DNA from: Antedon mediterranea
Lineage: Eukaryota; Animalia; Echinodermata
Length of the DNA: 64,000 nt
NCBI RefSeq assembly: GCF_964355755.1
Contig: NC_092672.1
Coordinates: 7,264,441 to 7,328,440 of the forward strand
Direction of reading: 5' to 3'
Both the position numbers and the translations under genes were made by a program. Position 1 is the stretch's first letter, and every line of letters begins with the position of its first letter. The notes under the pieces were generated by a model. It had not been told where the DNA came from and searched no databases. It worked only from the letters and a program-made list of their open reading frames with translations. This document shows, piece after piece, positions 15,741 to 53,550 of this stretch.

Positions 15741-18700
15741 TGAGTACATGAGTAGGTTTATTACTAGTGTTAAACACTTATTTTTATTTTTATTTTATTT
15801 TTTATTTAATCGGTATAAAAAGACTCAAAATACAACTCATAGTTGAAATGAAGAGCTTACATATGAAAAAGATAATTCACATAGCCTAAACAAAGTTAAA
15901 CGAAGAAAAAACACATTAAAGCCTAAGAAACAGTAATAATTACTGTATAATTCGTTAAACTTAAAATTACTATAAAAAATGCACAAATTCTTAAATATAC
16001 AATTTTAAAAAATAGAGACTAATATTAATAATCACATTATTTTTAAACACCAATAAAATATATGTAAAATTCATTAAATTAAAAGTACAATAAAAATTGC
16101 ACAAAATTCAAATTCAAAGGATGATATTAATAATTACAAATTCTTATATTATATTTACAAATTTAAAAAATTGAATCTTATAAATCACATTTTTATAGTC
16201 CCATAAGTAGTTAAAAAAAAAAATTTAAAGCATAAAACAACCACTTGACAAAGAGACAATAGAACATACTCTTCGAAATGTCTTTAAAGGTTAATTGTCC
16301 AAATCTATTCATTATTTAAGAGTCCAATAACAGTTGGAATTGTTGATGCAGCAAGTCTTTTAGTCCGACATCGTGGCACATCAAACTTATTAACTTTACG
16401 CAAACACCTTGTCGGCTTTTCTTTTTCAGGGATCCATTCCTTAAAGCGATCCGACTTTAGCAGCCCCTTTCCAAAGTTATAAAGAAGAACCTGACGTCTA
16501 TGCTGCAATGTCTTTAACTTGAGGGTTTCAAGTGATTTTGCGTAACTAACATAGTTTTGATATCCAATAATAAGTTTTACAACACGCTTTTGGATGAATT
16601 CAAGTTGATCACTCTGTTTATTGGTGATCGAGCTATGCCAAAGAGGACTGGCATACTCAAGTAAAGGACGAATGTATGTTATAAAAGTGAAAACCAGATC
16701 ATCCTTTGGGGCTCCAAAACGCTTCAGAATGTATAGCATATATAGACGACGTGATGCCCTGGAAACGACTTCTTTAATCTGCTTGTCCCACTTGAGGTCA
16801 CTTTGCAGATGCACTCCAAGAAGTTTCACACTCTGGGATTCTTCGAGTATAACACCATCCATTTGTAACGGCTCAAATTGGGGAACATTACGCAAAAAAT
16901 GAACACGCATCACTTGAAACTTTACAGGATTTGGTGTTGCATCATTCTCCACACACCAACTGGAAAGAGCATCAAGGTTGCTTTGAATCGAACTATCTTC
17001 AGGTCTCTGTACTGAAATCACCTCGCCAATCGTCAGGTCATCAACAAACTTCCATCTATCAGGTACATTGTTGAGCAAATCATTAACCATGATAGTAAAT
17101 AGGATTGGGCCTAATTTAGTACCCTGAGGCACTCCGCACGAAATTGGTTCTGGCGCTGAGACTGAACCGCCCAACCGCACACACTGATTTCTTTGCGAGA
17201 GGAAGCTACACACCGTTGGAATGATAGAGGGCATGATATTAAGACCAATTAATTTGTCAATCAGAATTGAATGGTTGACCCGGTCAAAGGCTTTACTAAA
17301 GTCTATGGCACAAATAGTACCATACATTCCTGAGCTATCTAATCCTGACAGAAGCCTATTACAGAGTTGAACAAGGTAATGAGTCGGTGATGAACCCTTC
17401 GCATTTCCAAACTGTTGGGAATCCATAAGAGGTCTGAAATCAGTAGCTATCCAATCAGAAAGGAAGCTCTCAAAAATTCTACCAAAAACAGGCGTGATGG
17501 ATATAGGCCTATGTTCATTAGGTGTAGAAGCCTTTGGCTTTTTGGGTACAGGAGTAATGATGGCATTCTTCCAGATAGATGGGAAATTATTATCCTGGAG
17601 GCAACAATTCAATATTTTAGCGAGAGGTTGGGCAAGTTCTAAGGCAAATTCCTTAATTAATCGGAGAGGTATATCACGAGGATGCCTTGATTTATTCACA
17701 TTAATGCCCTTTAATAGTTTAAAAACTTGCCCAGGAAAAATAACAGGGGGCTTAACAGAAGGAAGAAAGGCAGGTAAATTTCGCAAATCTAATGCAGGTA
17801 AAAAAGAACAAATCCTAGCAAAATGTTTGTTGACAACATCTACAACAACATCAGGGTCACAACCAGGTTCAAGAAGTGCAGATTGCGGTTTTGATTTTCC
17901 AGCAATCCTCTGCACTTTCTTGTGCCACTTCTGGGGCTCAATTTTCCTAAGAGAAGATATAGATTCTTTATAGAAGTTTGATTTTGCCAATCTTACTTCA
18001 GAACGAACAAGCCTTCTAAAATGACGGTATCTTGTTTGGTTACCCTTTCGATAAGCACGATGTCTTTTCTCAATCATTTTTTTAATACTTTGATTAAACC
18101 AAGGTTTATCATTGTCTCTGACACGAATAACTACTGAAGGAAAAGACTTTTCGTAGGTTTCCTTAAGCACACTTTCAAATTTGGCAGCTAAATATTCAGA
18201 ACTGTCGTCCTCATAAACTATATCATCCCAGTCAATCCCAGTAATAACTTGGCCAAATGCACGCATGGACGAGTCTTTCAAGGGACGGCGAACTAGCAAC
18301 CTTCTCTTTACCGGTTTCTTTTGAATAAAATTAGGTTTTAAAAGAATGGAGGCATGGTCACTGCGACCCAGGGGAGAGAGTTTTAAAGGGGATTGGTAAA
18401 GATCAGAGATGTTTGTTAACATTTTATCAAGACATGCATCATCGCGAGTGGGAAAATCTACTACTTGTTCTAATGATGTTTGATAAAGTAGGGGGTCAAT
18501 ATCGTAGTCATTAAAGTCACCCATAATAATGAAAGCAGCATTATCCCTTACACTACGAAAATAGTCAATTCTTGAGCACAAGAACTCTGTAAGCTGTTGA
18601 TTCCGATTACAGTTAGGTGGGTAATAGACGACAATAGTGACGATTGAGAAAGAGAGGTTAATTTTTACATCAACGCATAGGCATTCAAGATCAATAGGAC

Positions 18701-19487
18701 ATGCATCATCAACTTCGTAATCATATACTTCATTAATATATAGAACAACACCACCGCCAACGCGATTACTTCTATCATTCCGAATGCATGAGAAACCCTG
18801 AACTGCCGAACACTCAGAAGAAAAATCAGAATGAAACCACGATTCTGTTATACCAGCAATATCAATGTTACTGTTTGCTAAAACTAACTCAAATTCATTC
18901 ATCTTATTGCATAACGAGCGCGCATTACACAGAAAAACACTAGGGTAAATGTTAGACCTACTAAGTTTAGCTTTACAAAAAATTGGAACAAGAATACTAG
19001 GCCCTCTCTCACCATTAATATTAGAATTATCTACTCTTCCTCCGATCTGAACAAGTATTTGCTTCCGCATATTCCGACCAGCACGGCGCCCTCTTTTACG
19101 CTTGAAAGCGGATACATTAGTTCTTGAGAAATTATAATTCAAACCCATAATTATCGGAAAAAAAAAAACAATTCAGAATAAAACAAAGTATCAAAAACAA
19201 AGAGGAATAAGTCAAGAGAAGAAAACCACGAACAGAATATAAAACTTTGATAGAAGAGGCCTTCAACAAAAATTCAAGACAAGCATTGTACAAGTCTGAA
19301 GCTGGTTATCCCCTGTGTGAATAGAGACAATTAGAGGAACCACCAACAATTTAGACAATATTGAAAGACATGAGACATACTATTAATATCTTAACATGTA
19401 CATTACGCTACAGGTATAAAACAATCAGTAAATAAATCATAAAGGGGTCATTTTTTGGAACACAATTGCACTATTAGCAATAATGAA
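15741..19487 (-). mobile_element. Full-length single-ORF non-LTR retrotransposon (CR1/L2-like clade), in NLK intron 4, same orientation as NLK
   Basis: Termini were defined by comparison with the deletion derivative at 22357-22550. It has a 339-bp 5'UTR, a 947-aa ORF and a 564-bp 3'UTR containing two ~110-bp tandem repeats. Confidence 0.7.
16305..19148 (-). CDS. LINE ORF: APE-type endonuclease + reverse transcriptase (FSKAFDRVNH, FVDD) + CR1-type C-terminal domain (LEYASPLWH)
   Basis: Uninterrupted 947-aa ORF. Endonuclease N-terminal motif CNARSLCNKMNEFELVL..ITESW. RT motifs PISITPV, SKAFDRV, FVDD. Confidence 0.85.
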   Translation of the reverse strand: MGLNYNFSRTNVSAFKRKRGRRAGRNMRKQILVQIGGRVDNSNINGERGPSILVPIFCKAKLSRSNIYPSVFLCNARSLCNKMNEFELVLANSNIDIAGITESWFHSDFSSECSAVQGFSCIRNDRSNRVGGGVVLYINEVYDYEVDDACPIDLECLCVDVKINLSFSIVTIVVYYPPNCNRNQQLTEFLCSRIDYFRSVRDNAAFIIMGDFNDYDIDPLLYQTSLEQVVDFPTRDDACLDKMLTNISDLYQSPLKLSPLGRSDHASILLKPNFIQKKPVKRRLLVRRPLKDSSMRAFGQVITGIDWDDIVYEDDSSEYLAAKFESVLKETYEKSFPSVVIRVRDNDKPWFNQSIKKMIEKRHRAYRKGNQTRYRHFRRLVRSEVRLAKSNFYKESISSLRKIEPQKWHKKVQRIAGKSKPQSALLEPGCDPDVVVDVVNKHFARICSFLPALDLRNLPAFLPSVKPPVIFPGQVFKLLKGINVNKSRHPRDIPLRLIKEFALELAQPLAKILNCCLQDNNFPSIWKNAIITPVPKKPKASTPNEHRPISITPVFGRIFESFLSDWIATDFRPLMDSQQFGNAKGSSPTHYLVQLCNRLLSGLDSSGMYGTICAIDFSKAFDRVNHSILIDKLIGLNIMPSIIPTVCSFLSQRNQCVRLGGSVSAPEPISCGVPQGTKLGPILFTIMVNDLLNNVPDRWKFVDDLTIGEVISVQRPEDSSIQSNLDALSSWCVENDATPNPVKFQVMRVHFLRNVPQFEPLQMDGVILEESQSVKLLGVHLQSDLKWDKQIKEVVSRASRRLYMLYILKRFGAPKDDLVFTFITYIRPLLEYASPLWHSSITNKQSDQLEFIQKRVVKLIIGYQNYVSYAKSLETLKLKTLQHRRQVLLYNFGKGLLKSDRFKEWIPEKEKPTRCLRKVNKFDVPRCRTKRLAASTIPTVIGLLNNE

Positions 19488-20668: not shown

Positions 20669-21409
20669 TAGGAGAGGTCGGGGGAGGGGGGGGGGGGGAG
20701 AGGGTATCTCTTGATATTTAAATTCTCATAGCAATCATTGTCAGCTAAGAAGTTGAACTCCAAACATGTGTACAGGTATGAACGCATATTAATTAATGAT
20801 CATGAATGCAGTATAGTTATTTTCATTGGGGTCAATCAGACTATGCTCAGGTCAAGCATACTTTCCATTTAGTTTCAACCAATGTTCCGGTCAATCATTC
20901 TTTGTTCCATTTAGTCTTACTTATCCAGGTTAATTTTTACAAATATTTCTGATAAGAAGTCTCTTTATAACCGAGTCCTAGTATGGCTTAAAGATCGTTT
21001 CTACCCAACTGAATACCCTCCTCCCAAATGCACTGTAATGCCAACATCTCGGAATTACCTTCTTTAAGAATTTATTTCCAAGAATCAAGTTGTCTAATAC
21101 CTCTGAATTCCGTCAGAATGTTATAACTTAATTCTTTAAAAGGTAAAGAAGGGAAAAAAAAAGTCTTTAGTCATTGTAGATCATCGACTAGTACGTAGTC
21201 ATTGGATGAAGTGCTATGCAATTGCTATTAAGTCAATGACCTGTATTTGCCTATATAGTCTAGTATGATACTGTAGTTCATACTAGACTTGTATGTCCAT
21301 TAAAGCCCCATTCCCTACGTTTTTTAGATCTAATTTAAGATCACAAACTATATTTAATGTAAAAATAATACTATATGGTCCTATTGCGATAACTTTTTTC
21401 GTCTTTAAA

Positions 21410-21545
21410 CGGTTAAAAATGTGAAAAATAAATCGATTTTAATAATTATAGCGGCCCGCTATAAATCCCAAAATGCATTGCGCGCGGATTGATATTGTTG
21501 TTTTTCACCTGTAATGCGCCCACTTTTCGATCGATCGTGAAGCCA
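21410..21545. repeat. Interspersed repeat family D, CpG-rich (younger) copy
   Basis: Homologous to 14335-14480 and retains gcgcgcgg, cgatcgatcg. Confidence 0.45.
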
Positions 21546-22024
21546 AAACAAATGGAAGACTCCTAACTTTTCAGCGAAAATACCGGGTTTTCCCCAATTT
21601 GTATCAACGGAGTCTGGCAAAAATAGAAAGATAATTAATGCAGCAACTATACAACGTCAGGCTAGGTATATAGCTAGCGTACGATGTTCGTACGTTACCG
21701 ATGTTTACCAGCTAGGCCTACAAAACTAAGCCTAGCTAGGCTAGGCCTGAGACCGTCCACGAGAGGTCGATCGCCGCGAGCTACTTAGGTAGTGCATTGT
21801 TTCTCACTTTTTATCATAATTTACCATAAAACGTACATTTAAGACAAAGAATGACATGGTTTAATGTTTTTAAAGTGATATATATGTATTATTTTCCAAA
21901 AAACGTCCAAAATTGCAGGGAAGGGGTCTTTAACTTTAGAACTATAATTACAGACTAATGATATTGATAATACAAGATGTTGTTAGAAACAGGTTCTTAT
22001 GAATATAGTATGTCTTCATATAAA

Positions 22025-22182
22025 GCTCTGTCTACACTATTAAACTAATTTGACAAAAAAGTATCATGTACCCAAAGATGACACTGATACAGTATGTCTA
22101 AATATGGTAGTGATATGACATCATCCATATATGGGCATATCACATTGTTTTGTAACATAAAGTTTGATAGTGTAGACAGAGC
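22025..22182. mobile_element. MITE family A, complete copy
   Basis: Both TIRs are present (gctctgtctacactat.. / ..tttgatagtgtagacagagc). Confidence 0.7.
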
Positions 22183-34002: not shown

Positions 34003-34337
34003 AGTTCTGTCTAATTATCAATTTTACAAACAAAAGTGTGATGTGCCCAAATATGGTAGTGATGTGCCCAAATATGGTAGTGATGTGCCCAAATATGGTA
34101 GTGATGTGCCCAAATATGGTAGTGATGTGCCCAAATATGGTAGTGATGTGCCCAAATATGGTAGTGATGTGCCCAAATATGGTAGTGATGTGCCCAAATA
34201 TGGTAGTGATGTGCCCAAATATGGTAGTAAGTGATATGACAGTATGCCAAAAATATGGTAGTGATACATCATCATCATGTCCATATATGGGCACATCAAA
34301 TGTTTTGTCATATAAAGTTTGATATTGTAGACAGAGC
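34003..34337. mobile_element. MITE family A copy expanded by an internal 21-bp tandem array
   Basis: TIR-like ends gttctgtctaattatcaa / tttgatattgtagacagagc. Nine perfect copies of gtgatgtgcccaaatatggta lie inside it. Confidence 0.65.
34039..34227. repeat. 21-bp microsatellite-like tandem repeat x9 inside a MITE
   Basis: Perfect repeats. They generate spurious ORFs in all frames (34011-34495). Confidence 0.9.
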
Positions 34338-34943
34338 TTTATTTTAATGAGTTCAAAGTTAACACAAATATCAGAAAATTGAACTAGATGAATTATTAAA
34401 TGTAAATTGTATTCACCAATCATGTGTAAAGAGTAAAGATTAGAATGATAACACCTACTCCACCCATTTCCATTTAGACAACAACATAAAATCATTGTTC
34501 AAATCTGATTGACAATTAAAAAAAATGACATGTTACAATTACATATTAATAATAAAGATGATACAGCACTAGTTCAAAGTTTAATTAATTCACTGGTTAT
34601 CAGTCATGAAAACTGTTCAATGTCAGAATGGATTTATGCAAGTTGTAGAACAGCAGGAAAAGACCCTGAACAAAGCTTACTATATGAACAACAAAAACAC
34701 TAATAAATTAGATAATGTAGGCACTGTTTTGGTTTTTTTAAACATGACATCTCCCTCAGGGAGTCAGGGTAGAGTTTTCTCATTTTTTTTTGGTCACAAT
34801 TTCCAAATGCTTTTTACTGTGTATCTGTGTCCTCATCACACACCTACATGTAATTTGAAACACCATTGTGTACTTACTTTATTCCGGATATACTGATTTT
34901 AGATTTATATTTAGTTTAGTATTACTATACTACAGTATACAAA

Positions 34944-35508
34944 TGGGTCTAAAATTGGGTATTGCTAAACACCGCAAACACCGCAAACCTAAAAAAAAAC
35001 ATAGCAAACCACATCGAACCAACATAAATTTCTACTGTTAACTACTTATTTTTGGGGTAAAACATCACTTTTTGGTCAAAAATGATTGCTAAACCCTGCA
35101 AACCTCCAAAAAAATATAGCAAACCCCATCGAACCAACATAAAAGTGATTGAATCATGTAGTGTACAACCCACTGGGTATACAGTATCCATGTAAAAAAA
35201 ATATTAAATTTCTACTGTTAACTACTTATTTTTGGGGTAAAACATCACTTTTTGGTCAAAAATGATTGCTAAACCCTGCAAACCTCCAAAAAAATATAGC
35301 AAACCCCATCGAACCAACATAAAAGTGATTGAATCATGTAGTGTACAACCCACTGGGTATACAGTATCCATGTAAAAAAAATATTAAATTTCTACTGTTA
35401 ACTACTTATTTTTGGGGTAAAACATCATTTTTTGGTCAAAAATGATTGCTAAACCCCGCAAACCTCCAAAAAAATATACTGTAGCAAACCCCACCAAACC
35501 AACATAAA
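34944..35508. repeat. 181-bp satellite array A (~3 units)
   Basis: Direct repeats of the unit aaatttctactgttaactacttatttttggggtaaaacatcactttttggtcaaaaatgattgctaaaccctgcaaacctccaaaaaaatatagcaaacccc... Confidence 0.8.
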
Positions 35509-35509
35509 A

Positions 35510-35636
35510 GTGACAAATATGGTAGTAAGTGATATGACAGTATGCCAAAAATATGGTAGTGATACATCATCATCATGTCCATATATGGGCACATCAAATG
35601 TTTTGTCATATAAAGTTTGATATTGTAGACAGAGCT
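35510..35636. mobile_element. MITE family A partial copy (duplicate of the right half of 34003-34337)
   Basis: Identical to 34230-34337. Confidence 0.6.
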
Positions 35637-36242
35637 TTATTTTAATGAGTTCAAAGTTAACACAAATATCAGAAAATTGAACTAGATGAATTATTAAATG
35701 TAAATTGTATTCACCAATCATGTGTAAAGAGTAAAGATTAGAATGATAACACCTACTCCACCCATTTCCATTTAGACAACAACATAAAATCATTGTTCAA
35801 ATCTGATTGACAATTAAAAAAAATGACATGTTACAATTACATATTAATAATAAAGATGATACAGCACTAGTTCAAAGTTTAATTAATTCACTGGTTATCA
35901 GTCATGAAAACTGTTCAATGTCAGAATGGATTTATGCAAGTTGTAGAACAGCAGGAAAAGACCCTGAACAAAGCTTACTATATGAACAACAAAAACACTA
36001 ATAAATTAGATAATGTAGGCACTGTTTTGGTTTTTTTAAACATGACATCTCCCTCAGGGAGTCAGGGTAGAGTTTTCTCATTTTTTTTTGGTCACAATTT
36101 CCAAATGCTTTTTACTGTGTATCTGTGTCCTCATCACACACCTACATGTAATTTGAAACACCATTGTGTACTTACTTTATTCCGGATATACTGATTTTAG
36201 ATTTATATTTAGTTTAGTATTACTATACTACAGTATACAAAT

Positions 36243-37080
36243 GGGTCTAAAATTGGGTATTGCTAAACACCGCAAACACCGCAAACCTAAAAAAAAACAT
36301 AGCAAACCACATCGAACCAACATAAATTTCTACTGTTAACTACTTATTTTTGGGGTAAAACATCACTTTTTGGTCAAAAATGATTGCTAAACCCTGCAAA
36401 CCTCCAAAAAAATATAGCAAACCCCATCGAACCAACATAAAAGTGATTGAATCATGTAGTGTACAACCCACTGGGTATACAGTATCCATGTAAAAAAAAT
36501 ATTAAATTTCTACTGTTAACTACTTATTTTTGGGGTAAAACATCACTTTTTGGTCAAAAATGATTGCTAAACCCTGCAAACCTCCAAAAAAATATAGCAA
36601 ACCCCATCGAACCAACATAAAAGTGATTGAATCATGTAGTGTACAACCCACTGGGTATACAGTATCCATGTAAAAAAAATATTAAATTTCTACTGTTAAC
36701 TACTTATTTTTGGGGTAAAACATCATTTTTTGGTCAAAAATGATTGCTAAACCCCGCAAACCTCCAAAAAAATATACTGTAGCAAACCCCACCAAACCAA
36801 CATAAAAGTGATTGAATCATGTAGTGTACAACCCACTGGGTATATTCATGTAAAAAAAATATTAAATTTCTACTGTTAACAACTTATTTTGGGGGTAAAA
36901 CATCATTTTTTTGGTCAAAAATGATTGCTAAACCCCGCAAACCTCCAAAAAACCATAGCAAACCCCACCGAACCAACATAAAAGTGATTGAATAATGTAG
37001 TGTACGACCCACTGGGTATATACATTATTAAATTTATACTGTTAACTACTTTTTTGGGGATAAAACATCATTTTTTGGTT
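36243..37080. repeat. 181-bp satellite array B (~4.5 units)
   Basis: Same unit as array A. Confidence 0.8.
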
Positions 37081-37262: not shown

Positions 37263-38822
37263 ACCCCTAAAATTAACTTCTCTAATAATTAATTGTAAAA
37301 AAATGAAGATTCCTTACAAAATACAAAGGTTAATTCATGATATAAATAGACCACAATAATACTGTTCTATAATGTTTAACTATATACAGTATATGGTTTC
37401 TATACTTGATGGTTTTAAGTTTAACTGAACAGGTCCTATCTTAGCTTGTACTGTACCATTGGTGGATGATTAATTATTAGTACTGTATGCTTATATACTT
37501 GGATACTGTAAATAATTCTGAACTTATTTTTCCATAGCTTTTGAAAAGCTAAAAAAAACAATCTGTTGTAATAATATATTCACTGTAAGCTATAGTGAGT
37601 GTAGTTAGTAGGTTACACATTGTATAACAGTTGTATTGTATAGTAAAGGTATCAGTAAATCCTCTATGCTGTTTAATTACACCCACCACACAACAGACTA
37701 CGTTTTACTTTTAAATAGAGACTGTGTGCTTTGGTCTAACCACAAAAATTTAAGATTGTGAACAAAGAAATTACAAGGATAGACTCTTGGTTACTAAGTA
37801 AAAGACTTTGGACCTTTTGGTGATAAAAATACTATAGTGACAATGTTTTAAATATAGAAAATTGTACAATATAAAAATTTGAAAAATATGTTTAGGTGTA
37901 TGATTCTATATTATTTGTCTATTATGTTTCATTCTTTTTACATAAATTAAAACTTCGTTTTGATCCTCATTTAACTTGTATGTAAATTAGGGAAGGGCTT
38001 ATCAAATATTGATCATGCAAAATCTCATTTTTGAAAAAGATACAGTACAATGTTAATCTATTCAAGAACTAAATCCCTCTTTCAAAGGCTTACCAAATAT
38101 CCTTAAAAGGAAAATACAGTTAGTACACTATGTGGAAATACAGTACTATACAGTACTACAGTAGTAAATGGTAACTTCACATTTTTTGAAAATATAAAAT
38201 ACAGTATCATTATCAATAATAATTATTATAGTGTTAATTAATGATGCTGTACTTAATGTATATTGGTACTGTACAATAGTTAAAAAAAAAAATCTACTTT
38301 GAACAATTTACATACAATTCATAAGCTGTATACTACAGCTCTATATTAATTTAGTATTTTTGAAAACAGAATTTAATTTTCTAGTACGACATTTACTGTA
38401 AATATATAAAAAAGTCTACAGAAAAGAGATTGCAAAAATAGAACACATCTAGACAATTAACACAGTATCTGATTACTACTGGAGGCTTAAGAACCCCCTT
38501 GGAGCTGGGATGGATAGATCATTAGGTGTTAACATTTTTGCTCAACACAGGATGCTATTATAAATCAGGCCTTAACAAAGCAAGGACAGATTGAATGCAT
38601 TACAGTACCTATACTGTAAAAAAAGTGATTTGGATAGAAGTTTCATAAAATTTTACTGTTATTATACTGTCTGTAGTATAGTACTACTACTGGTAGTGGT
38701 AGTAGTAAGTGTATACCATGGACAAATTACTATTTCTTTGCTATACAGAGTACTGTGAACATGGAAAAAACAAGAAGCCCTTTAACATTGTCCAAGCAAC
38801 TTATAGTAAGAGTCTTCTAGCT

Positions 38823-39548
38823 ACAGTACTAAGCACAGACTTAGGGGCCTGTTCGTAGGGGTTGAAAATACCAGCTTATTCCCGATTTCCGTTCGCGTGG
38901 CCCAATTAACTTTTGCCTCAGGCTACAAAAAATTCGAGGTAAAATGTTCACCAAATTTGCAGGTTATTTCAGCGATAATCCAATTATACTCGGCCTTCGA
39001 GGATAATAAATCTCCGATAGAGGCAATGTGTCAAATTTTGACAAACGTTCGCTGCCTAGGCCCGTCATTTCTCCTACGAAGCTCTTCCATACACGCTTCG
39101 AGAGCGATCGTCAGCTGGTGCTGTCCTTGTTGGTGTAGACCGTTTAGGAATACACCCCGTTTAGTAGTAGGCCTAGCTGGTCGGTGGTGTTTCCGTCAAA
39201 TTCTTCGCCAATGAGTAAAATACAGGTCGTCAGGAGAAGGCATATTTCGGCAGGATTATCGGCGTTAAGAGGCATAAGGTTTGTCGCAAGGATAAGCAGT
39301 GTAAAAGGTAGCAAGTAATTGTTATTGTAAAGAAAGATCGCGAGTAAAAAATATACAACACGAAACTAGCGTGCGAAAATGGGGTCGTAGGTTGTAAAGA
39401 CAACTGACCTTAAAACGTAATTTCCGGTTTGTGATTCGTCGATTAAGCATTTAAGCGGTTAAATATTTCAAGTACGAACAACGCTCAATTTATAACCCGA
39501 GGCATGGGTGAAATTAAGCGCTTATTTTAACCACCGTACGAACACGAC
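38823..39548. mobile_element. ~725-bp GC/CpG-rich element with imperfect ~26-bp TIRs (ggcctgttcgtaggggttgaaaata / rc ggtcgtgttcgtacggtggttaaaata); non-autonomous DNA-transposon-like
   Basis: Visibly CpG-dense relative to the flanking DNA, with inverted termini. No recognisable transposase. Confidence 0.4.
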
Positions 39549-40751
39549 CTTACTGTGTGCAGAATGTTTTTTTGTAAATTAGGTTAATGAATGCAATTCC
39601 TACTGTAGCTAAAAGTAGGCCTACACAGTTCCTCAACTACAGTACCAGCCATATATGGGGGGGGGGGGGGGGAGAAATCCAGGATGAACTAAATTCACTT
39701 CCCTGTTGCAAATGCAAACAATGCAAAAAAGTGTAGACAATGTACACACTCAGAAAGCTTAAATTTGAATATTATTATGTTAAAAACCATTTTGGAGTCA
39801 TCATCATGTATCCAGTTTAAACACATTTAAAATAATTCCTATGAAAATGCAATCATTTTGTTAAGCTAGTCTAAAAAATGTAAAAGTAAAGATCTGTGCT
39901 AATTTGGAGTCGGCATAAAAAAAAAAATACAAAAAGAAAGTGCCTCTGGCCAGAGCTCTACATTCAGTATAGCATAGCCCAGGAATACATATCAATATGT
40001 CATAAGAAATTTATTACCAGCATAAGAATCATTTAAAAGGCAGTTTAAGAGGCTTTGTTTATTCTTGTCCATGATAACGTACAGTAAGTGTACTGAATAT
40101 TAATTGTGGATAGTTGATAGCTTAGGAGCTTCTAGGCAGTAATCGTGTCCAAATCACTCAAATTAAGCATTGGATTAAAAAAAAATATACAATATTGAAT
40201 ATAATTATGTTGAGAAATTCTAAGGTAAAAACTACCAAACTGTATTATATTTTTCTATGTAATGTACTGTATTACTTCAGTATTCTGCGAAATGAATACA
40301 TTATACACTTCAATATATAATTCCATCAAGAAAAGCGTATCAGTCACAAAAACTTTACTGTGACTCATTATGGTATACAAAATATATATGTTAATGAGTC
40401 AGAGTGAATCAGCGACTTTGTTATGCTAGGTATGACCCAATCAGGCATATTATTGGAGGATTAATATTTACAATCCCACAGTATTTAAAGTGTTTTGTTG
40501 ATACCAAACAATAACGACTACCACTACCGCCCTAAAGAATGATACATAAAAATATAATTAACAGAATATTACGGCAAAATAAAATTTTTCAGCACATTCT
40601 TTTTTTGTACATTATTGCATATTTACATATTTCTTTTTATAAAGAGAAAAAAAGGAGAAATTTTAGATGATGTTAATTAAAAATTATTTAGAAAATTTTG
40701 TTTAGCAAAATTGCTATCAAACTGATTTTTTAGTCAAGAAACATAGGTTTT

Positions 40752-42760: not shown

Positions 42761-42963
42761 CATACAACACCAAACGCACCATAACCGATCGGTCTGTCGG
42801 GCTCGAAATCTGCCCGTGTTGTCGACGTTGATGATGGTGTTGTGGTCGACGAAATGCCATTTCTTTGCTGATAAAATGCTTGTGAAGCATTTAGAGCACT
42901 TTGTTCGTGTAGAATACCACGAAAGTTCACATTCTGTCTTACTCTGGAACCACAGACAGCCAT
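42761..42963 (-). CDS. NLK: NLK exon 1 (start codon at 42963): MAVCGSRVRQNVNF...TTRADFEPDRPIGYGAFGVV(W)
   Basis: ATG reading MAVCGSR (human MSLCGAR). Glycine loop GYGAFGVVW. Donor gtaagt at 42755-42760. Confidence 0.8.
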
Positions 42964-44420: not shown

Positions 44421-46007
44421 TGTAAAGACGTTGGTATTGTGTATATACAATACAGATGTACCCAATAAAGAACTTGGTACACTATTCATGAGGGGATCAT
44501 CTCCCGATATGCTTATTATTTTGGTAGGCCATACACTGCTTCTGTGGGTCCGTAGAGTACCTTATATCTTCAATTTTAATAATAATACAGTTACATATTC
44601 AGTTCATACATCATCATAAGGTGCAGTAAGTCTAATGTTGTAGTTGTACCCCTCAGGTTCATCGTAATTTGATAAGCAAACCGACGGTAGACCTTCCCGC
44701 GTCTGGTCCGCTAAAAAGTTGTAGTGCCGTAGTTCACCTCTCAATCTATAGTGTGAATAAGTCAATTTCATCAATTACAACTATATATACTATATATAGT
44801 GCAAATAATGTGCTTTATTTGTTTTGCAAAACTAAATGTTAGAGTCACAAATTATTGGTATTTGCATCAAATCATGCCTAAAGGGTCTATCACAACCTCT
44901 CCGGTCTGGCTGTAGTTCAAATTCATGTCAAATTGCATGTACATCGTTTCGCCAACTATCAGTTGGCTTTCTCAAAGTGTAGTGACACGTATGTCACCGT
45001 TGACCTCTAGATGACAGGTAAATAATCGTTATTTACTATTACGGTTGAGATATAATTAACCAGAACAGGTGTGAAAGATGTTTAAAAGTGCCAGTAGGTA
45101 GAAAATATGTTTTTCTTAAATATATCACACACTAACTTACCTTTTATGGGTGACTGTCTCAAAATCATCTTGCAAACTTTTTATATTTGGAATATTTGCA
45201 GTTACCAAGCTACTACCTTTAAAATGTGTATACCTAACAGGGTGTCTAAAAAAAATTATTATATATAGATTAATATGCAGACTCAAAGGATAAAGGAAAA
45301 GAAAGATAGGGGGTCTCGGTGGTGTGTGAGTTAGGACATATTTTTTTCAAACTATTTTTTTATTGCATGATTTAAAAAAAAGAGGAATTTCTATAAATGG
45401 GCTATAGTACTACATAAAACCATAGAGGGTGCTATGAAAAATCTAAAAATATTGGTAAATAGGTGAAAAATGTGTTAGCAACACATTATATCAAACGCAT
45501 GAATGAATTATAAAAATGATACAGACCAATATTAGTTTTCTATTCTCTATCAATATATAGAGTAGTAGAAATTATAAATTTATACATTTTTTAGTTTTAG
45601 TTTTTAGTTGACTCAAAGTATCAGGAGACCGTACCGCCATTATCGGGAGAGTTGGGATGTCTGATTTCTAAAATATTAAAGTCAGTTAGGCTTGGGCAGC
45701 ATAACGTTTTTTAAAGGCATTATACATCAACAGAAATAAGTGCTGTATATTTACAATAACTTCAACAAACGTACAGAATTACAGGCCTTGTCTTTTGAAA
45801 ATTATAGGTGTGCTGCAAATTGCACTCCTCAATACATTCAGGGATGCTGTAGGTGTGCTGTTTGTACATTGGTGTGTAGAAGTTTGCCAAATTTAAGTGT
45901 GTTGTAAATTGCACACTCAAAGGGCAGTTTAGGCGTGTGTTAGGCGAGTGATCGCATTAGCTCGCCTTCAAAGACAAGGCCTGGAATTAATATGTAAAGA
46001 GATCTAC

Positions 46008-46187
46008 CTAGCATATGTATCCCAAAGCTTTCTTTGCATTCTTTGATCCCAAAGACACACCATGCCTTCCATACCACCACTTAGAACCTTCCAATCATCG
46101 GCCTGCACCTGAGTGACAGCGCCCCCATGTCCAGATAAACTCATGACAGGACGATTGCTTTCTAGACGTAAATCAAACAGCCGGACT
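46008..46187 (-). CDS. F-box/WD40 gene exon 8: (R)VRLFDLRLESNRPVMSLSGHGGAVTQVQADDWKVLSGGMEGMVCLWDQRMQRKLWDTYA
   Basis: Acceptor ctattcaatag, donor gtagat. WD repeat motifs (SGH..., LWD). Confidence 0.55.
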
Positions 46188-46317
46188 CTATTGAATAGAA
46201 AATATTTAGCATACAGTCGATCTCCATCGAATAGGAAATATTTAGCATAATCTGGTTAAAGTAGATGTGACTTCTTATGCCAAATAGCATTCTACATTTT
46301 CTCTTATATCTCTTTAC

Positions 46318-46673
46318 CTCTTATCTTTACATCCCGTAACAAACATGCTCCTAAGAGGGTCATCACCATGAATACAAGTAACATTCCAAGTATGTCCTCG
46401 GAACACTTGCTTTATGTTTTTTGTCTCAACGTCAAAGAATTTAACTGAGAAGCTCTCTTGGAAGCCTGCGACACCAAACCCGCAGACAATATAATTGTTC
46501 ATGACCTCCATACAAGTCGGTATTCCTGAGCCTCCTACAAAGGCATGTACAAGGCTTAGATACCTAGGCCCTGGTGCAGGCTGATAAATGTATAGTCCTG
46601 TATTTGTTATTAACGCTACATTGGTGGCTTGCTGGTTTTGATCCAACATTGGAAAAAGTTTCATATCTTCAAT
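46318..46673 (-). CDS. F-box/WD40 gene exon 7: IEDMKLFPMLDQNQQATNVALITNTGLYIYQPAPGPRYLSLVHAFVGGSGIPTCMEVMNNYIVCGFGVAGFQESFSVKFFDVETKNIKQVFRGHTWNVTCIHGDDPLRSMFVTGCKDK
   Basis: Acceptor ttttttttgtacag, donor gtaaag. Long open frame with WD signature FRGHTWNVTC. Confidence 0.65.
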
Positions 46674-46779
46674 CTGTACAAAAAAAAAATAAAGAAGAAT
46701 TATAATTGAATGCCATATCATATCTTGTATACTGTGTAACATTTATTCATAAGAATGAAGATTATTTGATAAAGTAGAA

Positions 46780-47030
46780 TTGTAACTTGATGGTTAAGAT
46801 GTTTGCCTCCTGATTTTACGGTACTGGGTTCAAATCCTGCTGATCTCAGAATGTTGGTTTCAAGACTAGAATAATATACCAGAGCCCTGTAATACAGTCA
46901 TGGCTGTATGATTAGTCTATTTTAGTATGCATTCTAGTGTGTATTCTAGTCCAGATAAAAAATCTTGAGATCAGACAGGATCGAACCCAGGACCATACAA
47001 TCGGTAGCCAAGCCAATATATATGACAAAA
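46780..47030. repeat. Foldback element with inverted tRNA-like arms (ctgggttcaaatcctgctgatctcagaatg / rc ctgggttcgatcctgtctgatctcaagatt)
   Basis: Two inverted T-loop-like segments separated by ~70 bp, in an F-box gene intron. Confidence 0.45.
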
Positions 47031-47032
47031 AA

Positions 47033-47117
47033 ATGTGTTATATCACTTGGGCATATCACTACCATATTTGGGCACATCACACTTTTTTGTCAAACTAGTT
47101 TGATATGGCAGACGGAG
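47033..47117. mobile_element. MITE family A partial copy
   Basis: gggcacatcacacttttttgtcaaactagtttgatatggcagacggagc. Confidence 0.5.
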
Positions 47118-47145
47118 CTTTAACCACAGAATCACATCTACTTAC

Positions 47146-47339
47146 ATCAGTATCCAAAATGATAGAATCTTGCTTATACCAATTGCCTGAACCATTGGCA
47201 GTCTCAACTCGTAGTTCCCTCCCAGAGGTACTTGCAACTTGGGCAGCATCAGTTGCTATAGACGCACATCTAATACTATCTTGGTGATAACGATGGACAG
47301 GGTCACCACCATGCTCTGTGCTCCATATATTCATGTCAC
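47146..47339 (-). CDS. F-box/WD40 gene exon 6: (G)DMNIWSTEHGGDPVHRYHQDSIRCASIATDAAQVASTSGRELRVETANGSGNWYKQDSIILDTD
   Basis: Acceptor ctacttaag, donor gtaagt. Phase links exon 5 to exon 7. Confidence 0.6.
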
Positions 47340-48025
47340 CTTAAGTAGTTAAACGTTTCATTTGTTTGTATCATTGTTATGTAAAAATAATTGTCGGAGT
47401 AAAATTGTTGTGTAAAACACAAAAATGCAGTGTGACATTTACTAGCAGATTCTCAGTATTGTATCATATATAATTTGTGCAGTATCCAGGCAAATTCTAT
47501 AATACATTGTCACATATGCATCTCATGTGGTGGCTGTAAATAGGCTAAAAGACTAACCAACCTTAACCCAATACAGGTGTGACATTGTACAACAAAACTT
47601 GCCTATGATACTGAAGACATCATGTTATATATGTGAAAATACAGCACAGAGAATCGGCTGCTTTTACTATAACTAAACGTCCTTTTCAATACATGGCATC
47701 GTTCCCAGTGCTTTTCACTTTGCTGAGATCACTTCTTTAATAATAATAATAATAATACCAGCATATCTTTTAGACAACCATTACTTACACATTATAGTTC
47801 TATAAAATAATATTACTATATAATATAAATACATTTTTTTTTACATAAAGTACATGAGCACTCTTGAGTGGTATGTGCGCTATAAAAATCCTGTATTGGT
47901 GGTGGTGGTACATCATCTGTTAATGGATTACGAGACATGGCTGTATCAATACTTTATATCATTCTAAACATACAGTAATTAAACCCGGAGACATTTTAAT
48001 TTTGTTTTAGTGTTTATTTACTCAC

Positions 48026-48093
48026 CATTTGTGTATGTCGCAATGGAAACGATTGAATTCACAGCCACGTGATTGACCTCTGGCATATCACAA
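48026..48093 (-). CDS. F-box/WD40 gene exon 5 (short version): (G)CDMPEVNHVAVNSIVSIATYTN(G)
   Basis: Acceptor ccatgctttttag, donor gtgagt. This is the only arrangement compatible with the phases of exons 4 and 6. Confidence 0.45.
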
Positions 48094-48526
48094 CTAAAAA
48101 GCATGGTTTCATTTTCAACTTGACCATTTACTTTCCACAGCCTAACACTACCATTAGAATAACTAAGTATAAAACAATACAATGTTAATTAATGATTTAC
48201 AGTATTTATTCAAATAAATTCCTGACTTTGAATTAACACCCCCTCGCAAAAACGCCCCGCCACATGCAGTACATACACAATATTCTATCACAACACATTT
48301 CTATTTGTAGTAGAATTCATTGATTGATCTACAAATTTGATATCATTTTGATGCAATTTTTACAGTTTTTTTTATCCCTTTTCGATATTAATTTTTTTTT
48401 TTCATATCTAGGGGGTAGTTATTTGATGTTACAAATATATAAACGCCTCCCTCTCCCAGGACGTTTATTCAAATAATTTTGTATTATGGTGGTCCTTAAA
48501 ATTGATAATTGAAATTCTTCTCTTAC

Positions 48527-49417: not shown

Positions 49418-49722
49418 CTGAAAAAATGATAATACATAGAAAGAATTATAGTAAGCATCAACTGAACAATACTATCATTAACCTCATACACATAAAAACA
49501 TTATGGGTTTGTCAACATAGTGTATGGATGTACTGTATTTGAAAAAGATGATGTTAACTGTGAAATATACACTAGTGGCCAGATTTAGACTTTTGATTTT
49601 TATTTAAATCACTTAGATTTGATCAGACATTGTTATGTTGATCTGCATCACAAAAAGGTTACCTCTGGTTAGAGGGAGTGTCTAATGCGGGGTCTCAATT
49701 GGAGTATACTGAATTTTCATAC

Positions 49723-50103
49723 CAAATCTGATATGAAAGTTTCAAGAAATCCGAGTGTCTTGTTTTTTTCTTCATCATCTTCATTGTTCATCTTTCTTCT
49801 CTTCCAAGCATTCTGATTTGTCAGTCTCTCACTTGTGCTAGCTTCATTCTGATTGGTCAGTCTCTCACTTGTGCTAGCTTCATTCTGATTGGTCACTCTC
49901 TTGCTTTCATTTCTATTCTGTAATCTTTTTCCTTCCAGTAAGGTTTCAACAATTGTAAATGGTGTGTAGTTCACTTGGGCATTTATATCAACTGTGTTCT
50001 TTGTGTTCTTAGGATCTGATTTGTGATCAGAGATTCCAGGTTCAGTCTTTTTTTCTTTCAGTTCTTTTTTCCAAGACACTCTAAACTTGTCTAAGTCATC
50101 CAT
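49723..50103 (-). CDS. F-box/WD40 gene exon 1 (start codon at 50103): MDDLDKFRVSWKKELKEKK...NEDDEEKNKTLGFLETFISDL; contains 12-aa tandem repeats RLTNQNEASTSE
   Basis: ATG-initiated open frame ending at donor gtatga. A 36-bp DNA tandem repeat lies at ~49800-49900. Confidence 0.6.
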
Positions 50104-51442: not shown

Positions 51443-53062
51443 ATGGCAAAGTTGATATTTAAAAGAAGATATAATGCTTCTTTAGAAGAAGCCCAGAATG
51501 CGGTGAGATCAAATGAGTATCCCGCCGCTAAGTACGCTAGGTTCCTCCAGGTGAGGAATAGAAGGGCTAGGCCTAGAAACAGGGGGTGTCCTTATGTCAG
51601 AAGAAACGCTAATGTTAACCCAACTTGTAAGTTAGGCGGCCTACACGAATTAGATACACTTATAAAAACGGAAAACAAATCAGCTGATATCAATTATTGT
51701 CATTTTGATCATGAATTAGGCCTAGGCCTAGGCCTAAATACAAATGATATGCCTATCATAATTATAAGTAGTGATAGTAGTAGTGATTGTGACATTATTA
51801 TAAGTAGACCTAGTACCAATGATGGTGATAGGCCCAGTGAATATCAAATGTTGTCTCCAAATACAAATGATATGCCTATCATTATAAGTAGTGATAAGAG
51901 TAGTGATAGCGACATCATTATTAGTATTAGCAGTGATGGTGATAGTAGAAGTAGGCCTAGTGAAGACCAAATGTTGTCTCCAAATACAAATGATATGCCT
52001 ATCATGATAAATAGTGATAACAGTAGTGATAGTGACATCATTATTAGTATTAGCAGTGATGGTGATAGTAGTAGTTGGCCTAGTGAAGACCAAATGTTGT
52101 CTCGAAATACAAATGATATGCCTATCATGATAAATAGTGATAAGAGTAGTGATAGTGACATCATTATTAGTATTAGCAGTGATGGTGATAGTAGTAGTAT
52201 TAGTAGTAGTGGTACTATGCCCAATAGTAAGAGTAGCAGTAGTGGCGATAGTACTAGTCGTAGTATTAGTAGCAACAGCATTGGCAGTAGCAGCATAGGA
52301 GAAAATAGTAGCACTGTTGTAGTCGTAGGAAATGGTGATGTTTTGTTTCATTTTCCAGGTAGTGATAACAATTCTAACGACATTTCAAATGAAAATTTTG
52401 AATTTGAATCTAATAAAGAATATTTTAATTCATTAATTAATCGTGAAAAAATATCTGAAAATCCATGGGCACATTTTGAATCACAATCAGTCAAAGATCA
52501 TATGGTAGAATTTTTATGTAATATTCGATCTGAACTCATTCGTTATGAATACATAATCGATTATGATATTGTTCATCGTAGCCTTACAATTATAGAAAAT
52601 GTACTAATCTGTGATAACACAGCATTTAAACTTGGAGATCTCGAGGAATTGGCAATTGCATCATTTTGCCTTGCATTGAAATGTGCTGAACGATACCAAT
52701 CTAAACACATCATCCCTTATGCGTGTGACCGCCTCCGGAATCTTGGCTTCTTCAATCCTAAAAAAATTGCCCAAATAGAATTTAAAATATTAAAGATAGT
52801 AAACTTTAATATCAATAGTGTCACTTGTCTTGATTTTGTTCACATTTATTGCGATATTGCTATCAGTAAAGCTACAACCAACAACAACAAACGTAGAATA
52901 GAAAGAGTAAGACACGAATCTGTCAAATATTTGATTACAAATAAAATATCTCTTACAACAGTAAAGCCATCCGCAATAGCTTACTTAATAATTAACGCAA
53001 TTCTGGAGAAACTAGAAATACAAGACTCATTCTATTTTGAGAATAATGACGATAGTTCTTAA
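51443..53062 (+). CDS. Intronless cyclin-box (cyclin N-terminal domain) protein, 539 aa, with four ~40-aa tandem repeats carrying SIM-like cores (DIIISISSDGD) and a Ser-rich linker
   Basis: Single ORF. The C-terminal ~200 aa carries a cyclin-fold pattern (MVEFLCNIRSELIRYEYII, LAIASFCLALKCAE, KKIAQIEFKILKIVNFNI). 120-bp DNA repeats lie at 51760-52200. Confidence 0.65.
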   Translation: MAKLIFKRRYNASLEEAQNAVRSNEYPAAKYARFLQVRNRRARPRNRGCPYVRRNANVNPTCKLGGLHELDTLIKTENKSADINYCHFDHELGLGLGLNTNDMPIIIISSDSSSDCDIIISRPSTNDGDRPSEYQMLSPNTNDMPIIISSDKSSDSDIIISISSDGDSRSRPSEDQMLSPNTNDMPIMINSDNSSDSDIIISISSDGDSSSWPSEDQMLSRNTNDMPIMINSDKSSDSDIIISISSDGDSSSISSSGTMPNSKSSSSGDSTSRSISSNSIGSSSIGENSSTVVVVGNGDVLFHFPGSDNNSNDISNENFEFESNKEYFNSLINREKISENPWAHFESQSVKDHMVEFLCNIRSELIRYEYIIDYDIVHRSLTIIENVLICDNTAFKLGDLEELAIASFCLALKCAERYQSKHIIPYACDRLRNLGFFNPKKIAQIEFKILKIVNFNINSVTCLDFVHIYCDIAISKATTNNNKRRIERVRHESVKYLITNKISLTTVKPSAIAYLIINAILEKLEIQDSFYFENNDDSS

Positions 53063-53346: not shown

Positions 53347-53550
53347 AGCCTGTTTTCCTGTCGACGTTAGTCGACGCTATCGTTAACAATAATCGGCGAT
53401 CTTCTACGTAAACATTGAAATGTTAACGATTTACAGGAAAGGGTACTCGCTATCGTTATCATTTCAACTTGATCGTTTTTAAACGATCGTCGTTGAACTG
53501 TTAACGATCAACGACGATAGCGTCGAATAACGTCGACAGGAAAACAGGCT
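53347..53550. mobile_element. MITE with perfect ~21-bp TIRs (agcctgttttcctgtcgacg / cgtcgacaggaaaacaggct), 204 bp, possible TTAA/TA target site
   Basis: Perfect inverted termini. AT-rich flanks ..cattaa | ..taaaac. Confidence 0.6.

Follow-up and report, generated by a model that had tools for sequence, protein, structure and literature searches.

Why does an AT-rich and CpG-poor intron of the crinoid Antedon mediterranea harbour a discrete block of some 700 bp that is dense in CpG dinucleotides, and where did this block come from? We analysed the 64,000-nucleotide stretch of DNA that surrounds it (the window), and our data are best accounted for if the block (38844-39549) represents a single insertion of a class II, cut-and-paste DNA transposon, non-autonomous and most probably a member of the PIF/Harbinger superfamily, at a TTA within intron 1 of NLK, a reading to which we give a probability of about 0.7. 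Within this superfamily the element is most likely either Tourist-like (MITE-like) or an internally deleted derivative.

Host gene and composition of the block

A tblastn search with human NLK gave eleven exon matches on the minus strand of the window, running from 42810 down to 9586. The coding part of exon 1 (MAVCGSRV...GAFGVVW), which forms the upstream boundary of intron 1, occupies ~42963-42761 on the minus strand and is followed by a GTAAGT donor near 42761. Exon 2 (SVTDPRDGRRVALKK..., ~30314-30182, minus strand), recognised in the tblastn search with NLK and by comparison with the annotated Antedon protein, forms the downstream boundary. Reconstructed from the window, the NLK protein matches the annotated serine/threonine-protein kinase NLK-like of Antedon mediterranea along its full length at 99% identity, and the two have identical N-termini. 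On the strength of this homology the element can be placed within intron 1 of the minus-strand NLK gene of A. mediterranea, bracketed by exons 1 and 2, in agreement with the location given in the earlier note on this DNA.

That note had also described the block as an isolated CpG-rich island within an AT-rich, CpG-poor intron, and its composition bears out this description. The 706-bp element at 38844-39549 holds 46 CpGs, with an observed/expected ratio (o/e) of 1.39 and a GC content of 43.5%, while CpG o/e in the 2-kb flanks is 0.21 and ~0.38 (that is, 0.2-0.4), at a GC content of ~30% and with TpG/CpA in excess (o/e 1.1-1.4); TpG o/e within the element is 0.71. The window as a whole is AT-rich and moderately CpG-depleted, with a GC content of 0.319 and a CpG o/e of 0.64. 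Among ~1270 windows of 700 bp, the region of the element ranks first by CpG count, with 46 compared to a mean of 11.2 (sd 7.7), the next unrelated maximum in the 64 kb being 34, and when CpGs are grouped across the window the largest cluster is again this block. About nine CpGs would be expected here from the gene-body background, in contrast to the 46 found. The edges of the block are sharp: all of its CpGs lie between the first at 38854 and the last at 39545, and the nearest CpGs beyond it are at 38387 on the left and 39911 on the right, leaving CpG-free gaps of 467 bp and 366 bp respectively. The interval originally delimited, 38823-39548 (GC 0.433, 46 CpG, o/e 1.36), captured a real block but not the exact extent of the element proper, whose bounds could be narrowed to 38844-39549 because TTA repeats abut its termini.

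Loss of CpG accompanied by an excess of TpG and CpA, as in the flanks, is the footprint of methyl-cytosine deamination, and methylation is the probable cause of the depletion of the intron. Mosaic (gene-body) methylation is established for invertebrates. The NLK gene body overall has a CpG o/e of 0.51, compared to 0.88 in the 20 kb upstream, and this contrast fits such a pattern of methylation. Elsewhere in the window CpG clusters, most of which lie beyond the gene body, have an o/e of 1.3-2.0, so that the value of 1.39 in the element fits sequence without methylation-driven decay.

Inverted termini and a TTA duplication at the block edges

The edges of the block coincide closely with a pair of terminal inverted repeats (TIRs), the first CpG lying 10 nt inside the left end of the element so bounded and the last CpG 4 nt inside its right end. 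The left TIR is at 38844-38878 (plus strand) and the right TIR at 39515-39549 (minus strand). When the left 60 nt were aligned locally, with gaps, to the reverse-complemented right end, the result was TAGGGGCCTGTTCGTA-GG-GGTTGAAAATACCAGCTTA / TAAGGTCGTGTTCGTACGGTGGTT-AAAATAAGCGCTTA, with a score of 27. Control pairs of positions with equal spacing throughout the window had a mean score of 13.6 (sd 3.2, z ~4.2 for the element) and only 0.5% of them reached 27, which confirms the imperfect inverted termini that had been noticed earlier. With gaps the TIR extends over ~35 nt and is rather imperfect, its ~38 alignment columns holding three indels and ~5 mismatches. The 14-nt cores, GGGCCTGTTCGTAG on the left, beginning at 38845, and GGTCGTGTTCGTAC at the minus-strand start of the right TIR, match at 11 of 14 positions, with three mismatches. 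Directly outside the two termini the sequence reads TTA, at 38841-38843 on the left and, identically, at 39550-39552 on the right. This perfect target-site duplication (TSD) had escaped the earlier note, and it refines the bounds of the element. Read inward, the ends are TTA-G-GGGCCTGTTCGTAGG... on the left and TAA-GGTCGTGTTCGTACGG... on the right, one additional G at 38844 separating the left TSD from the left TIR core. Before insertion the site would have read ...GCTACAGTACTAAGCACAGAC-TTA-CTGTGTGCAGAATGTTTTT..., with a single TTA. A discrete block of foreign composition that stops exactly at inverted repeats and a short TSD has the anatomy of a class II transposon insertion.

Several other repeats around these termini are less informative. 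The inner part of the right TIR lies within a local palindrome at 39507-39532. A possible subterminal repeat of the right TIR (39451-39485 compared with 39514-39549) was not significant (p ~0.13), an outer 15-nt inverted repeat (38814-38828 / 39601-39615) was at chance level, and a search for tandem repeats inside the element found none.

PIF/Harbinger elements are characterised by a 3-bp duplication of TTA/TAA and by TIRs of 14-25 bp with an outer G(N)5GTT (PMC2213677). The element agrees with this description in the TTA abutting both of its termini and in its TIR, with 11/14 matches in the core and ~35 nt in the gapped alignment, and both termini, GGGCCTGTTCG / GGTCGTGTTCG, bear the G(N)5GTT motif. 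In the end sequences used for the motif comparison, GGGCCTGTTCGTAGG (left) and GGTCGTGTTCGTACG (right), the position of the motif next to the TSD is exact at the right end, TAA-GGTCGTGTT, where it directly adjoins the duplication, and offset by 1 nt at the left end, TTA-G-GGGCCTGTT. As such, a strict scan for the motif adjoining the TSD fails by one nucleotide, while a scan allowing a 1-nt offset passes. Consensus TIRs reported for the superfamily include GGGCCTGTTTGRAACACTTTTT, GGGTCCGTTTGGTTC and GNSYSTGTTTGGTT, and that of MtPH-E from Medicago is GGGCCTGTTTGRAAC (PMC2213677), the first 10 bases of which are common with the left core of the element from 38845. The element thus resembles the non-autonomous PIF/Harbinger elements (Tourist-like MITEs, MtPH, mPing/Pong and PIF/mPIF) in its TTA TSD and in TIRs that start GG...GTT, and resembles the shortest non-coding MtPH copies, of 431-898 bp (PMC2213677), in its sub-kilobase size and lack of coding capacity. 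It differs from these elements in its crinoid host, in the one extra G on the left before the motif, in a TIR that is long but imperfect, and in a body that exceeds the genome in GC and CpG rather than being AT-rich. Tourist/Harbinger elements have been annotated in another crinoid (PMC11861897), and among the repeats of a feather-star genome DNA transposons form the largest class (PMC13079724).

The termini could instead be those of a TIR transposon of another superfamily, such as a Tc1/mariner-like element with a 2-bp TA duplication, in which case the match to the Harbinger motif would be coincidental. TA is contained in TTA on both sides, the rule that G(N)5GTT strictly adjoins the TSD is missed by 1 nt at the left end, and the element contains no fragment of a transposase that would identify its family. 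However, if TA were the duplication the two termini would start with G... and A... and so be out of register, while with TTA both start with GG, and the core GG(N)4GTTCG fits the published PIF/Harbinger consensus TIRs (PMC2213677). We therefore consider a different superfamily unlikely. Candidate duplications of 4, 5, 8 or 9 bp at the element ends gave no match, which excludes the piggyBac, Transib, hAT, P and Mutator types.

Coding content, mode of insertion and competing origins

The element appears to encode nothing. Pfam searches of its six frames found no domain even at E<=10, its stop-free stretches of at least ~28 aa, concatenated, had no homologue among 5.8 billion proteins, and its 122-aa open frame found no match in a full HMMER scan of 1.84 billion representatives. 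Rfam returned nothing at gathering score over the whole window or at E<=1 over 38600-39800, and a tRNA search found none in the element. The earlier note had singled out a 105-aa open reading frame (38897-39214, plus strand) for comparison with known proteins. This frame is judged spurious and not to be a gene because it begins with GTG, has no Pfam match and no relatives in protein searches, and belongs to a stop-free frame that opens at 38810, outside the element, and enters from the flank through the TIR. Nor does its product appear among the called genes on record. The DDE/DDD transposase (IS5-like, DDE_Tnp_4) and Myb/SANT-like open reading frame that define autonomous, and only autonomous, PIF/Harbinger members were not found in the element, either as a domain or as a homologue. 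Since no transposase is present, this copy would be non-autonomous, and since there is no transposase remnant, it is the termini and the duplication that assign it to a superfamily. At 706 bp, non-coding and with TIRs and a TSD, the element conforms to the usual description of a MITE (short, < ~800 bp).

Some features of the element sit less easily with a PIF/Harbinger insertion. Repetitiveness is a basic property of a transposon family, and searches for further copies or fragments within the 64 kb (blastn with word size 7, and nhmmer) returned only the self-match, so that a single copy is seen; the flanks of the element likewise showed no repeat-family membership within the window. Classical MITEs are AT-rich, and a CpG o/e above 1 with a GC content 12 points over that of the genome is not typical of them. 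The extra G at the left end breaks the strict published motif rule, the TIR is imperfect, and the superfamily is assigned without a transposase remnant.

Given a PIF/Harbinger-like insertion, the known behaviour of the superfamily suggests how the element would have reached its present site. A DDE transposase and its Myb-like partner, encoded elsewhere in the genome, would have mobilised it in trans, recognising its GG(N)4-5GTTCGTA termini and excising it from a donor site, and integration at a TTA followed by gap repair would then have doubled the 3 bp. Coding for nothing, the element would be transcribed only within the NLK pre-mRNA and removed from it by splicing of the intron. Its CpG richness would be a composition that it brought along, while the CpGs of the surrounding intron would have been lost to TpG and CpA. 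It is likely that its arrival was recent relative to the time taken for CpGs to decay in a presumably methylated gene body, and escape from methylation would be a less likely cause of their retention. That the CpGs of the element are intact while those of the surrounding intron have decayed suggests a recent insertion. The earlier note had listed a very recent non-autonomous DNA transposon among its candidates, and the TIRs at the block edges, the TTA TSD, the terminal motif and the lack of coding sequence all support the transposon part of this proposal, while its recency is read from the CpGs.

A comparable situation is known from cnidarians, where intronic repeats are CpG-enriched over the intronic background and young copies are preferred targets of methylation (Ying et al. 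2022, PMC8857917). The Antedon element is alike in being a repeat within an intron of a long gene and in being CpG-richer than its background, and because cnidarian intronic repeats are likewise CpG-rich compared to their surroundings (PMC8857917), a CpG-rich element in a CpG-poor intron may well be an ordinary pattern. In contrast to the cnidarian data, the crinoid methylation pattern is deduced from CpG depletion only.

The CpG density of the block might instead be maintained, if it were an unmethylated island, perhaps itself derived from a transposon, that acts on NLK from within the intron, either as an alternative promoter or as an enhancer, or that serves as promoter for the element itself. 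This is consistent with the o/e of 1.39 and the lack of surplus TpG/CpA in the block, set within a gene body that is strongly depleted of CpG, and with its 46 CpGs compared to 22 in the NLK exon 1/promoter block. The element also resembles the intragenic ('orphan') CpG islands of vertebrates in being a discrete block of ~700 bp whose o/e exceeds 1 while the transcribed region around it is CpG-poor. It is unlike them in being bounded by TIRs and a TSD, in its GC content of 43.5%, and in having an invertebrate host for which mosaic methylation is assumed. A CpG island in the sense of Gardiner-Garden and Frommer is reportedly at least 200 bp long with a GC content of at least 50% and a CpG o/e of at least 0.6. 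The element passes in length (706 bp) and o/e (1.39) and falls short in GC (0.435), and so does not qualify under this classical definition. Moreover, it contains no RNA family and no open reading frame that has relatives, it shows no exon-like similarity to NLK, and its sharp edges are already accounted for by the TIRs and TSD. The annotated A. mediterranea NLK begins at exon 1, upstream of intron 1, and the alternative first exon of an Anneissia isoform joins exon 3 rather than exon 2. A maintained island is therefore improbable as the explanation of the block; it could be compatible with a transposon origin, and is not needed to explain the data.

More far-reaching interpretations are distinctly improbable. 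In one, the element would actively escape gene-body methylation and work as a promoter or enhancer island; in the other, it would show that a Harbinger family which is still mobile entered Antedon very recently by horizontal transfer, an idea that draws on the foreign composition of the block (GC 43.5% compared to 32%).

The same difference in GC content from the host, together with a CpG o/e above 1, is what could be said for foreign DNA other than a transposon, whether bacterial, viral, organellar or vector-derived, that was integrated here or mis-assembled. We judge this very improbable. There is no protein-level similarity in any frame and no tRNA or rRNA, the DNA of the element had no match among plasmids and phages, and one exact 23-mer from it had no match in 185,579 prokaryotic genomes. 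A degenerate pattern of both TIRs gave 63 single matches in metagenomes, none of which extended beyond the pattern or was paired, and matches of this kind, 19-23 nt in length, are attributable to chance. Random integration would not be expected to give TIRs and a TSD. The horizontally acquired fragment of prokaryotic or viral origin that the earlier note had entertained can accordingly be set aside.

A chance fluctuation in composition with a fortuitous inverted repeat, and no discrete element at all, is equally implausible: although, counting every position and lengths of 80-6000 bp, chance alone should produce the relaxed signature of TSD, motif and TIR ~0.25 times in 64 kb and one other such pair does occur in the window, the block has 46 CpGs compared to the ~9 expected, the TIR reaches ~35 nt, and for chance to be the cause the signature would have had to fall no more than 10 nt from either edge of an anomaly of ~700 bp that was defined independently, which is very unlikely. 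The strict rule gave no other Harbinger-like TIR/TSD pair in the window. The sole other pair under the relaxed rule, at 45929-48152, has a TTA and four mismatches in 14 and spans an exon-like open reading frame related to WD repeats; its occurrence at the chance rate suggests that it is probably fortuitous.

If the PIF/Harbinger reading is correct, the element probably represents a so far uncatalogued family of non-autonomous PIF/Harbinger-like elements, or a single member of such a family, in a crinoid, and is a hint that DNA transposons have been active recently in Antedon mediterranea. Its significance beyond genome annotation is small. It may be of modest value as a natural test case for the spread of gene-body methylation into new insertions and for the rate at which CpGs decay, and it is a possible presence/absence marker among Antedon populations or species.

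Other features of the NLK locus

Two further CpG-dense features were seen in the window. A second block in the NLK gene body, at 21318-21833 between the exons at ~25829 and ~19972, has 30 CpGs and an o/e of 1.6, with no convincing TIR or TSD at its ends, and is possibly a further young insertion, of another type. A short patch at 53362-53535, within an otherwise very AT-rich kilobase, has a CpG o/e of 3.1, with 22 CpGs in 174 bp. Close to the element described above, 107 bp to its right and outside it, is a G16 homopolymer at 39657-39672.

The introns of NLK contain several other repeats. An intact 947-aa open reading frame of a non-LTR retrotransposon, with an Exo_endo_phos endonuclease and RVT_1, lies at 16305-19148 (minus strand) and has a CpG o/e of 0.70. 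Another A. mediterranea chromosome carries an annotated protein with 99% identity to it, and for this reason the retrotransposon family looks recently active. A hairpin-like element of 158 bp at 22025-22182, with 22-nt terminal inverted repeats that are 95% complementary (GCTCTGTCTACACTATTAAACT...) and flanks of ATAA(A)/ATAA(G), is probably a small MITE. Intron 1 itself carries a 1298-bp tandem segmental duplication of 100% identity at 34216-36956, which includes a 180-bp satellite (35025-35478 and 36323-36956), and the repetitive open reading frames at ~34040-34310 point to a short tandem array there with a period of ~21 bp.

Upstream of NLK, a 539-aa ATG-initiated open reading frame at 51443-53062 (plus strand) has internal Ser/Asp-rich repeats (NTNDMPIIISSDKSSDSDIIISISSDGDS...), shows no Pfam domain and has no counterpart among the called genes on record. 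Exon-like open reading frames at 46314-46742 and 49717-50103, both on the minus strand, indicate a neighbouring minus-strand gene upstream of NLK. The first of these resembles a WD-repeat beta-propeller family only weakly, with a score below the cutoff, and the second encodes an N-terminal MDDLDKFRVSWKKELKEKK... segment.
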